Source of the DNA: Candidatus Minusculum obligatum
GTDB lineage: Bacteria > Patescibacteriota > Minisyncoccia > Phycocordibacterales > Phycocordibacteraceae
DNA length: 64,000 bases
Assembly: GCA_002331145.1 (NCBI GenBank)
Contig: DCYT01000002.1
Coordinates: forward strand, 23,337-87,336
Reading direction: 5' to 3'
Under the pieces are notes generated by a model. That model searched no databases, was not told where the DNA came from, and worked only from the letters and a program-made list of their open reading frames with translations. Positions 9,203 to 11,326 of the stretch are shown here, piece by piece. The position numbers and the translations under genes are program-made. Each line of letters opens with the position of its first letter. Within the stretch, counting starts at the first letter, position 1.

Positions 9203-9237
9203 ACTACGTAGTTAATTACGTAATTAACTACGTAGTT
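9202..9237. repeat. Perfect 36-bp palindrome of three 12-bp palindromic units
   Basis: AACTACGTAGTT-AATTACGTAATT-AACTACGTAGTT; overlaps the thrS stop codon. Confidence 0.9.
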
Positions 9238-10982
9238 GGTGCAAGTGCTCGAGAGTCTCGCTCTTCTATAAGTTTTTGGATAAAGTCATCTACGTTTACT
9301 CCATCAAGTTTTCCAAGGTCTCGATGCTCAGGAGAAACTTCATTGCTCTCAACTTCTTTATCTCCAACAACAATTACATATGGAACTTTTTGTCCTTTGA
9401 ATCCATAGATACGCTTTCCAAGAGAAATGTTCTCAGCATTTACTTCAACTCGAATATTTTGCGCTTCAAGTTTTTCTTTTAGTTCTTGTGTGTATGCTGC
9501 ATGGTCTTCTGATACTGGCACAAGCCCAACTTGTATAGGTGAGAGCCATAGAGGGAATGCTCCTGCAAAATGCTCAATTGCAACTCCTAGGAATCGCTCA
9601 AGAGATCCTGAGATAGCTCGGTGGATCATAACAGGGCGCTTTTTCTTTCCATCACTGTCTGTATATTCAAGCTTAAATCGCTCAGGAAGGTTGAAATCAA
9701 GCTGTGCGGTAGCTAATTGCCACTCTCGTCCAATTGCGTCAGTTGCAACAAAATCAATTTTTGGACCATAGAATGCTGCCTCTCCAGGCTCAGTTACGTA
9801 CTCTTTTCCAATCTCTTCAATACAAGACTTCAAAGTGTTGATTGAATTTTCCCAAAGCTCAGGAGTTCCAAGGTACTTCTCTGGCTCCTCAGGATCATTG
9901 GTAGAAAGTCTTACTGCAAGTGGCATATCAAAGGCTTCGTAGAAGTTTTTGATGATGTCGTAGATTGCGAGCACCTCGTCTTTTACTTGATCTTCAGTAC
10001 AAAATACATGGGCATCGTCCTGTGTAATTGATCGAACTCGAGTGAGTCCTGCAAGTTGCCCTGTATTTTCGTCTCGATATACCGTTGTTACCTCAGAGTA
10101 CCTGATAGGGAGATCTTTGTATGAGCGAGGTTGTGAGGCAAAGATTTGTGTGTGGTGAGGACAGTTCATCGGCTTCATGATGAACTCGTCATCTGTCTTC
10201 TTGCTTTTTACAAAGAAAATATCATCTGCAAACTTGTCATAGTGTCCACTTGTTTTGTAGAGATCACACTTTGCCATATGAGGAATATTTACACGCTCAT
10301 ATCCATAAGGCTTTGCAAGTTCCCACACAAACTCTTCAAGCTCTTTACGCATGATATTTCCCTTGGGTGTAAATAGGGGAAGTCCAGAACCAACAAGAGG
10401 AGAGAATGCAAAGAGATCAAGCTCCTTTCCAATCTTTCGATGGTCTCGCTTTTTTGCCTCTTCTTGTTGTTCTTTGTATGCATCAAGATCAGCTTTAGAT
10501 TCAAATGCTATTCCATAGATACGAGTAAGCATTTGATTGTTCTCATCTCCCTGCCAGTATGCTCCAGCAACATTTGAGAGCATGAAGGCTTCGGGATCAA
10601 TGTCCTTTGAAGACTCTACGTGAGGTCCTTCACAAAGATCTGTGAAGTTTCCAATAGTGTATGTAGAAAGTTTCGCACCTTCGTCATTTAGCTTTTCAAT
10701 GAGTTCAAGCTTATGAGTCTGGTCCTTGAAGCGCTGCTTTGCATCCTCGTATGTAATTTCATGCATCTCAGGAGTAAATCCTTCTTTGAGTATTTCGCGC
10801 ATAAGTTCCTCCAGTTTTGGAAGATTCTCCTCATTTACAGGAGATGAGAGTTCAATATCGTAATAAAAACCATTGTCTGTTGCAGGTCCCGTTCCGAATT
10901 TTGCCTTATCATCGTGCTCGAGCACAGCGCCTGCAAGTATGTGTGCTAGAGAGTGTCGAATCTTCAAAAGTTTGTCATCCAT
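9228..10982 (-). CDS. thrS: Threonine--tRNA ligase
   Basis: RHSLAH, DLCEGPH, RDHRKIG, KPMNCP, AAFYGPKID and IHRAI.GS.ERF motifs. Confidence 0.98.
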   Translation of the reverse strand: MDDKLLKIRHSLAHILAGAVLEHDDKAKFGTGPATDNGFYYDIELSSPVNEENLPKLEELMREILKEGFTPEMHEITYEDAKQRFKDQTHKLELIEKLNDEGAKLSTYTIGNFTDLCEGPHVESSKDIDPEAFMLSNVAGAYWQGDENNQMLTRIYGIAFESKADLDAYKEQQEEAKKRDHRKIGKELDLFAFSPLVGSGLPLFTPKGNIMRKELEEFVWELAKPYGYERVNIPHMAKCDLYKTSGHYDKFADDIFFVKSKKTDDEFIMKPMNCPHHTQIFASQPRSYKDLPIRYSEVTTVYRDENTGQLAGLTRVRSITQDDAHVFCTEDQVKDEVLAIYDIIKNFYEAFDMPLAVRLSTNDPEEPEKYLGTPELWENSINTLKSCIEEIGKEYVTEPGEAAFYGPKIDFVATDAIGREWQLATAQLDFNLPERFKLEYTDSDGKKKRPVMIHRAISGSLERFLGVAIEHFAGAFPLWLSPIQVGLVPVSEDHAAYTQELKEKLEAQNIRVEVNAENISLGKRIYGFKGQKVPYVIVVGDKEVESNEVSPEHRDLGKLDGVNVDDFIQKLIEERDSRALAPTT

Positions 10983-11000
10983 ATAGCCTTACTATACAAC

Positions 11001-11026
11001 AAATGCGACCTATTGGGGCCGCATTT
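11001..11026 (-). terminator. Attenuator terminator hairpin upstream of thrS
   Basis: Minus strand AAAUGCGGCC-ccaaua-GGUCGCAUUU followed by GUUGU (imperfect U-tract). Confidence 0.65.
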
Positions 11027-11056
11027 CATAATATAAACACAACCGCCAGAGAGCGC

Positions 11057-11092
11057 TTACCACGTTGTGGTTGTTGTGTTTGTTACGATCAT
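11057..11092 (-). CDS. Thr-rich leader peptide MIVTNTTTTTW upstream of thrS
   Basis: atg atc gta aca aac aca aca acc aca acg tgg taa: 6 Thr in 11 codons, 5 of them consecutive. Confidence 0.8.
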   Translation of the reverse strand: MIVTNTTTTTW

Positions 11093-11104
11093 AATAATAA
11101 ATAG

Positions 11105-11132
11105 AGAGTAGCAGATGGGTAAGGGAAGTCAA
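11105..11132 (-). promoter_or_regulatory. Sigma70-type promoter for the thrS leader
   Basis: TTGACT-16 nt-TACTCT with extended -10 TG. Confidence 0.6.
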
Positions 11133-11143
11133 TGTGAAAGGCG

Positions 11144-11326
11144 CTATGATTGTAGCGCCTTTTTCCTTTCCTTTCTTTTCTTCTCCAGTGCTCCAACTTT
11201 CTTTCGGAGTGATTTGCGAATGTTCACAACTTCTCTGTCGTCTGAGGTTTTCAGAACAATGATTTCAGTATTGATGCCTGCAATTTTTGCATCAAGAAGG
11301 AATATTTCCCGCTCTCGTTTTTCCAT
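11144..11326 (-). CDS. Small basic hypothetical protein (60 aa)
   Basis: GGGAGG SD before the ATG; TTGACA-17-CATCTT overlapping the dnaE 3' end. Confidence 0.6.
   Translation of the reverse strand: MEKREREIFLLDAKIAGINTEIIVLKTSDDREVVNIRKSLRKKVGALEKKRKERKKALQS

Follow-up and report, generated by a model that had tools for sequence, protein, structure and literature searches.

The window, the whole 64,000-nucleotide (nt) stretch of DNA that was analysed, comes from a Candidatus Minusculum obligatum genome (598,171 bases in six contigs, 99.3% complete; G000) whose nearest ThrS relatives lie chiefly in Paceibacterota, Nomurabacteria and Saccharibacteria. On the minus strand, dnaE (14499-11356) is followed by a basic open reading frame (ORF) of 60 amino acids without an NCBIfam match (11326-11144), a hairpin folding at −14.7 kcal/mol (11137..11162), a leader and a gene for a threonine-tRNA ligase of 584 amino acids (9228..10982), whose assignment as thrS in the first-pass annotation was upheld by a TIGR00418 match of 656 bits (cut-off 384). 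The hairpin is likely a terminator that separates the leader from the transcript of dnaE and the 60-amino-acid ORF. It is found again in G002, a genome of the same genus, and a third genus genome, G003, has a different hairpin in the equivalent position. At the site of the 60-amino-acid ORF the DNA of G002 is unrelated, yet its leader is near-identical.

All parts of the leader lie on the minus strand. A putative distal promoter (P1, 11105..11132) combines a −35 box TTGACT (11132-11127), a 16-nt spacer and an extended −10 box TACTCT (11110-11105) with TG two bases upstream (TG-c-TACTCT); judging from the spacing, transcription would start at ~11098, about 6 nt 5' of a short upstream ORF (uORF, 11057..11092). 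This uORF has 11 codons, encodes MIVTNTTTTTW and includes six Thr codons, five of them consecutive (codons 6-10: ACA ACA ACC ACA ACG). Segment 1 (11073..11081) can pair with segment 2 (11035..11048; core 11044-11035 plus UGG 11048-11046) in a protector stem 1:2. Segment 2 has a second possible partner, segment 3 with the terminator loop (11014..11026; 11026-11017 plus CCA 11016-11014), giving an antiterminator 2:3. Segment 3 is also part of the putative terminator 3:4, whose 3' arm is segment 4 (11001..11010) and whose core stem joins 11023-11017 to 11010-11004. The three stems are mutually exclusive, with bare energies of −7.6 (1:2), −9.2 (2:3) and −14.4 kcal/mol (3:4; −10.3 kcal/mol for its 7-bp core, −14.4 when extended). 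Hairpin 3:4 ends 18 nt 5' of the thrS ATG (10982). An interrupted U-tract, UUUGUUGU (10996..11003; six U in eight), where a terminated 3' end is predicted near 10996-10997, abuts a proximal −10 box, TATAGT (P2, 10991..10996), 8 nt 5' of the ATG.

The promoter, uORF, segments and proximal box were thereby recovered base for base where the first-pass annotation had placed them. Two of its descriptions needed amending. Segment 1 can pair with segment 2 as proposed, but it is not confined to Thr codons: it runs from the last part of Thr4 through Asn5 and Thr6 into Thr7. The list of stems was right, but the reach of 2:3 had been understated: three extra pairs between UGG (11048-11046) and CCA in the terminator loop (11016-11014) take it from −9.2 to −13.5 kcal/mol.

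When the 161-nt intergenic region was shuffled 20,000 times with its dinucleotides preserved, an ORF having both start and stop codons and five Thr codons in succession never appeared; nine shuffles gave one with four. Among 1,995 short ORF starts near gene starts of G000, no listed ORF besides the thrS uORF has a run of at least four Thr. Shuffling the 25 nt 3' of the uORF stop, with regions that had been picked after inspection of the sequence, matched the energy of 1:2 in 28 of 2,000 cases, that of 2:3 in 102 and both in none. At one and the same threshold, Thr-rich uORFs occur in 6 of 304 thrS upstream regions (described below), compared with 4 for Val, 2 for Ala and 2 for Pro; by count they stand little above the others, so that run length and stems are what distinguish them. 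Runs of four or five identical residues, chiefly Leu and Ser, do occur in short ORFs near other genes of G000, which lends something to the idea of a terminator-bearing intergenic region with an accidental ACA repeat. Set against the absence of the run from 20,000 shuffles, its conservation and its recurrence in several lineages, this idea is vanishingly improbable, and we conclude from the shuffles and the conservation that the uORF is not a chance occurrence.

Conservation in relatives, on which the first-pass annotation had staked its reading, is seen in three of the four genus genomes, which retain the uORF and the alternative stems, with double-sided changes, across a ThrS divergence of up to 18%. 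The uORF peptide of G002 (ThrS 99% identical) is identical to that of G000; G003 (82% identical) has MNNTTTTTTTV; both keep the stems. When the three genomes are aligned, all 27 cells of 1:2 and 29 of the 30 cells of 3:4 are paired; two of the nine 1:2 pairs have changed in both bases, and no 1:2 pair is broken. Covariation, which had been proposed as a check, falls short of significance for 1:2 in an alignment of three (49 of 500 shuffles). Segment 3 does not vary, segment 4 differs at two positions and the loop bases that extend 2:3 (CCA or CCAG) are conserved in all three leaders, a pattern that fits a double constraint on segment 3. In the nascent RNA, 2:3 reaches −13.5 (G000), −16.8 (G002) and −18.5 kcal/mol (G003). 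Of four DNA sequencing runs compared with the region, X1 is possibly the source itself, X3 and X4 repeat the differences of G002 and are not independent of it, and X6 reaches the edge only. In the fourth genome, G001 (ThrS 83% identical), both promoter-like boxes are present and the ~95 nt between them, comprising the whole uORF and the hairpins, are missing; loss of the leader is the simpler reading. P1, as TTGACTTCC and the −10 box, is conserved in all four genomes, G001 among them.

To follow the leader beyond the genus, we assembled 341 thrS loci, 312 of them distinct and 304 with at least 200 nt of upstream DNA, a sample biased by its selection on similarity, its few rows from outside the candidate phyla radiation (CPR) and the deliberate search of the family of L192 once that locus was known. 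A Thr-rich uORF was found in 6 of the 304 regions, a T-box motif in 44 and both in none, as expected for two solutions to one job. The leaders outside the genus are L192, L231 and L235, from three genomes of a 12-genome Paceibacterota family in which 11 gave a thrS match. L192 (Candidatus Paceibacterota, ThrS ~50% identical) encodes the predicted leader peptide MLAITTTTTTTTA, L231 encodes MFKRTTTTTITTETA and L235 encodes MITSTTNTTS, each closed by a stop codon. No proximal −10 box was seen in these three, and their thrS therefore seems dependent on the leader transcript. A further phylum-wide sample of 89 loci (86 with sufficient upstream DNA), screened with a looser Thr-rich rule, gave a T-box motif in 8 and a Thr-rich short ORF in 4 (L423, L482, L464 and L407). 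One of these, L423, from a distant phylum member, has a predicted full attenuator with the peptide MKSLIVITTNTTTL, again followed by a stop, and a UUUUU tract. The family- and class-level samples held no further leader beyond the genus. On these sequences, a Thr leader before thrS is a real, scattered and uncommon device.

Several candidates were set aside: L183 has no stems, L407 looks like the tail of a gene and the Thr uORF of L007 (G030) has no start codon. About 180 nt 5' of thrS, L007 nonetheless carries a promoter, ACCACAACA close to the start, a long stem and a strong U7-tract terminator, and no T-box motif. Similar stretches at L221 (G540) and L229 (G613), each with an ACN run and its complement beside CCATG, probably belong to the leader of an opposite-strand gene. 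A DNA pattern joining the Thr run to segment 2 gave nine matches in 401 genomes of the order, only that of G000 lying before thrS; the matches were no more numerous than for a backwards control, and the pattern is too specific to help.

The thrS gene of Bacillus subtilis is under T-box control, and that of Escherichia coli is autorepressed, ThrRS binding an operator of tRNA-Thr anticodon-arm mimics beside the Shine-Dalgarno (SD) site. The first-pass annotation had cited T-box control of thrS as a Bacillus trait; it is not Bacillus-only, as T-box motifs precede thrS in many relatives of G000. Such loci have the T-box consensus and a terminator, with an ACC specifier-like motif in 36 of 44. The Rfam model RF00230 matched 8 of 9 of those tested, at 23-37 bits against a gathering score of 93, so far below it that the compact T-boxes here are predicted ones. 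At L044, L053, L087, L129, L014, L209 and others, a compact T-box, its ACC specifier held in a small hairpin loop, lies together with a terminator 60-250 nt 5' of thrS. L005, L011 and L029 have the consensus and the terminator, with no visible specifier stem, and are possibly degenerate or specifier-less T-boxes; promoter-like boxes lie just ~30-45 nt 5' of the T-box in L011 and L029. A T-box motif also precedes serS at L384 (G656) and at G653:C59:887, in genomes whose thrS has a leader peptide; in G656, at least, both kinds of switch can evidently coexist. G000 has no T-box motif in the leader or anywhere else in the genome, and RF00230 has no match at E ≤ 10 in 10900-11250.

The ThrS sister group of the genus consists of L062, L110 and L209 (support 1.0 in a 207-protein FastTree; SH-aLRT 99 in a 36-protein IQ-TREE quick tree), of which L209 and L062 have T-box-like leaders. 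On the ThrS trees the two leader groups sit apart rather than in a single clade, each of them with neighbours that bear T-boxes. Forcing them into one clade was rejected (approximately unbiased (AU) test, P = 1.1e-7, 25 rows), in a test whose grouping was named after the first tree and which omitted L231 and three kin, their frames being broken at TGA under table 11. A leader may, moreover, move or be lost independently of thrS. Two or more origins, or else transfer, are likely.

A more specific scenario, which we consider doubtful, is that CPR bacteria repeatedly converted a compact Thr T-box in place into a ribosome-read attenuator, keeping promoter and terminator. In 21 of 44 cases the T-box stem has an in-frame start codon two or three codons 5' of the ACC specifier, so that the specifier could have become an initial control codon from which a Thr run later grew. 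Against such conversion, comparison of the window's leader with the T-box leaders showed no significant similarity in sequence (mean z 0.39, best 2.7), and the pattern would be accounted for equally well by a newly arisen uORF or by transfer of a leader. If true, the scenario would provide a direct route from riboswitch to leader peptide, with near-leaderless initiation and without Rho.

We modelled the switch by folding the nascent RNA to the end of the core hairpin at equilibrium, omitting the U-tract as if held in the polymerase and masking the RNA covered by a ribosome to +9, +12 or +15 nt past the A-site codon. For G000, the probability of 3:4, P(3:4), was 0.95 without a ribosome and 0.00-0.13 with one on Thr7-10 (masks +12 and +15). 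With the ribosome at the stop codon it depended on footprint length (0.03, 0.18 and 0.84 at +9, +12 and +15), and under the shortest mask termination would require quick ribosome release. The corresponding values at the stop, for masks +12 and +15, were 0.56 and 0.94 in G002 and 0.79 and 0.95 in G003. These two leaders, L231 and L423 behaved like G000; in L423, P(3:4) was 0.97 free, 0.00-0.01 on Thr8-12 (mask +12) and 0.97 at the stop. The predicted switch was shallow in L192 (from 0.92 to ~0.5), the terminator of L235 barely formed (0.00 free) and the model gave no switch for L482. When all downstream RNA was free to pair, 3:4 was the most stable structure at every ribosome position in G000; antitermination would therefore have to be kinetic, occurring during transcription, which an equilibrium model cannot show. 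Antitermination is kinetic in the E. coli trp attenuator as well.

P(3:4) in G000 also fell when the ribosome was placed on Val3, Thr4 or Asn5, so that a stall anywhere mid-uORF would lead to antitermination. The uORF might thus sense general ribosome slowing or failed initiation, with Thr codons present mainly because ACA/ACC repeats pair well with the GU-rich segment 2. We think this very unlikely: the Thr run is in frame after the ATG in seven of seven clear cases, all four Thr codons are used and the cognate synthetase lies downstream. The first-pass annotation had proposed a scan of the other synthetase genes for cognate-codon uORFs; before 14 of them in G000 (argS, tyrS, lysS and pheT lay outside the set), neither a uORF rich in cognate or Thr codons nor a T-box motif was found. 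Likewise, no credible cognate uORF was found before the Ile, Val, Leu, Ser, Pro, Gly and His synthetase genes of G001, G003, G653, G656 and G660 (row L370 excluded), the Leu- and Ile-rich matches there lying in other frames of upstream genes or having no stems. Upstream of serS, a 300-nt stretch (G000:C5 ~198940-199270) is similar in G000, G001 and G003 and has no ORF of at least 90 amino acids on the serS strand; it may be an opposite-strand gene or a structured RNA.

The genomic setting bears on how such a switch could work. In a search for Rho that covered the four genus genomes and G653, no protein reached the cut-off (best 34.5 bits, cut-off 509), and NusA is present in all five genomes searched; intrinsic termination is therefore the likely output. 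NusA aids terminators with interrupted U-tracts. An SD-like 4-mer precedes 46 of 429 genes in G000, and TAnnnT boxes, scored for 261 genes with an upstream gap, end 6-9 nt before the ATG in 105 cases (elsewhere mostly 2-10 per position). Leaderless or near-leaderless initiation thus looks normal here, an SD-free uORF is plausible and TATAGT is likely a promoter. The distance from the P1 −10 box to the uORF ATG (12 nt) falls outside the 6-9 nt peak, into which the equivalent distances of L192, L231 and L235 fall. Homoserine dehydrogenase was not found in any of the five genomes searched; with the G000 assembly 99% complete, this fits the Thr auxotrophy that the first-pass annotation had thought probable. 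Threonine is probably taken up, and making more ThrRS would be one of few responses available. G000 has tRNA-Thr(UGU) and tRNA-Thr(GGU), and tRNA-Thr(CGU) was not found.

We therefore favour, with reasonable though not high confidence, a ribosome-dependent transcription attenuator that raises thrS transcription when charged Thr-tRNA is scarce, over a basal level from a leaderless promoter. RNA polymerase would start at P1 ~6 nt 5' of the uORF, and a ribosome would initiate without an SD sequence, as on most genes here apparently. With ample Thr-tRNA, the ribosome would reach the stop codon and cover the UGG extension of segment 2; its release would let 1:2 form, then 3:4, and polymerase would halt at the interrupted U-tract near 10996, probably aided by NusA. 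With scarce Thr-tRNA, the ribosome would stall on Thr7-10 and cover segment 1, segment 2 would pair with segment 3 and polymerase would read through into thrS. The original proposal of ribosome-stalling attenuation is in this way supported by the conservation of uORF and stems, by recurrence in distant lineages and by modelled ribosome positions that switch the terminator.

The weak U-tract, a caveat of the first-pass annotation, is real: six U in eight and interrupted in G000, it is interrupted in all three genus leaders, with five U in eight in G002 and G003 and a C first in G002. By a crude scan, the G000 tract is within the range seen behind 105 hairpins 3' of genes in the same genome, and its imperfection may be explained by P2 abutting it. 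The interruption also suits a different output for the same Thr-tRNA sensing, in which 3:4 and a weak hairpin of −4.3 kcal/mol covering the thrS AUG would act on translation of thrS, or on the stability of the P1 mRNA, rather than on termination; likewise, the leaderless Thr leader before thrS in Streptomyces lividans has no U-tract in the accessible text of its report (PMC8079986). Translational or stability control is nevertheless unlikely, as 3:4 stops 18 nt short of the AUG and masks no SD-like site (none is visible before thrS, and such sites are rare in this genome), the AUG hairpin is independent of switch state in most folds and both L192 and L423 have good U-tracts.

The other caveat, that TATAGT might be a second, leaderless promoter, was probably right. 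Its 8-nt spacing is the modal leaderless spacing of the genome, it is kept in all four genus genomes and P2 is likely a leaderless promoter for basal thrS expression, predicted from these features. The attenuator may accordingly govern only part of thrS expression in G000, acting in this genus as a boost rather than the sole gate, with P2 likely supplying a basal level that bypasses the switch. The same spacing and conservation, together with the loss of the whole leader from G001 and the bare promoter that alone precedes thrS in most relatives, would suit a real attenuator that is decaying or mostly bypassed, P2 making most thrS mRNA and the leader adding little. We judge this quite unlikely. 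All stems are kept with compensating changes despite 18% ThrS divergence, G002 shares the leader despite having unrelated DNA directly 5' of the insulating hairpin, and P2 has no TG extension, which is seen in 33 of 69 comparable promoters.

With its cognate uORF, exclusive stems and stall geometry, the G000 leader is predicted to work like a classical leader-peptide attenuator. The closest parallels in E. coli and its relatives are pheM-pheST, likewise a cognate-codon leader peptide with alternative stems before a synthetase gene, and the enterobacterial thrL leader (RF00506, Thr_leader), likewise a Thr-rich peptide with 1:2/2:3/3:4 logic. thrL governs biosynthesis genes and reads Ile too, whereas the G000 leader precedes a synthetase gene in a genome in which homoserine dehydrogenase was not found. 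The RF00506 model aligns on the same strand at 11103-10994 with 13.1 bits (E = 7; gathering score 55), too low for detectable homology, and no Rfam family has a gathering-level match within the window. Compared with pheM-pheST, the amino acid, gene and phylum differ, there is no SD sequence, the leader before the uORF is ~6 nt, Rho was not found, the U-tract is interrupted and a promoter lies behind the terminator. The predicted T-boxes share the input (uncharged tRNA-Thr) and the output (a terminator before thrS), and a TTGACN promoter precedes both kinds of leader, but sensing in G000 would go through the ribosome rather than through direct tRNA binding.

To our knowledge, almost nothing is known of gene regulation in CPR bacteria, and a survey of attenuators before synthetase genes, reportedly made by Lopatovskaya et al. 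in 2010, may include thrS cases. A literature search, mainly outside subscription journals, found nothing published about attenuation, leader peptides or T-boxes in CPR, and the accessible part of a 2026 review of the phylum has no passage on gene regulation (PMC13293708). A thrS leader peptide as such has a predicted precedent. In the accessible text on S. lividans, thrL-thrS is predicted to have a leaderless leader of 18 codons, two of them for Thr, with a single hairpin and without a U-tract (PMC8079986); leuL2-leuS and trpL2-trpS of Streptomyces appear as predicted attenuators before synthetase genes in the available portion of another report, which also names pheST as a classical attenuator (PMC1262725). 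As far as these sources go, the Streptomyces thrL, leuL2 and trpL2 are likewise leaderless cognate-codon uORFs before synthetase genes, thrS included, and the leaders here differ from Streptomyces thrL in having 5-8 consecutive Thr codons and the full three-stem switch. In bacilli, according to the part of the account available, hisS paralogs exchanged a T-box for a His leader peptide, for which a convergent origin was proposed (PMC2965389; cited in this comparison literature together with PMC4833913, likewise available in part); there the exchange followed gene duplication in Firmicutes, and here it concerns single-copy thrS among CPR relatives.

The mechanism is a textbook one, and the interest lies in the lineage, in the SD-free and Rho-free setting and in the repeated exchange with T-boxes. 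If the switch works as predicted, host-dependent and probably Thr-auxotrophic CPR cells monitor their amino-acid supply, and their transcription is coupled to near-leaderless, SD-free translation tightly enough for ribosome positions to be sensed without Rho. The three states of the thrS leader (compact T-box, leader peptide and bare promoter) form a natural series for the replacement of one sensing system by another, and the element, at 150 nt, is small enough for reporter or in vitro work.

Some observations on the genomes and genes searched lie outside the leader itself. The G000 assembly is without rRNA, and ARAGORN reports a tRNA with anticodon TAT (Ile) at G000:C5:295789-295862, alongside two CAT tRNAs. 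In several relatives (G005, G009, G013, G019, G038 and G039) the ThrS matches start at about residue 170-177, so that short ThrS without N-terminal domains may occur there. The thrS genes at L231, L232, L233 and L237 (G656, G657, G654 and G655) have four to six in-frame TGA codons at conserved Trp positions of ThrS, and those of G653, G658 and G660, from the same family as G656, have none; UGA-to-Trp recoding has been described for two Minisyncoccia lineages in the accessible part of a published report (PMC13695967).
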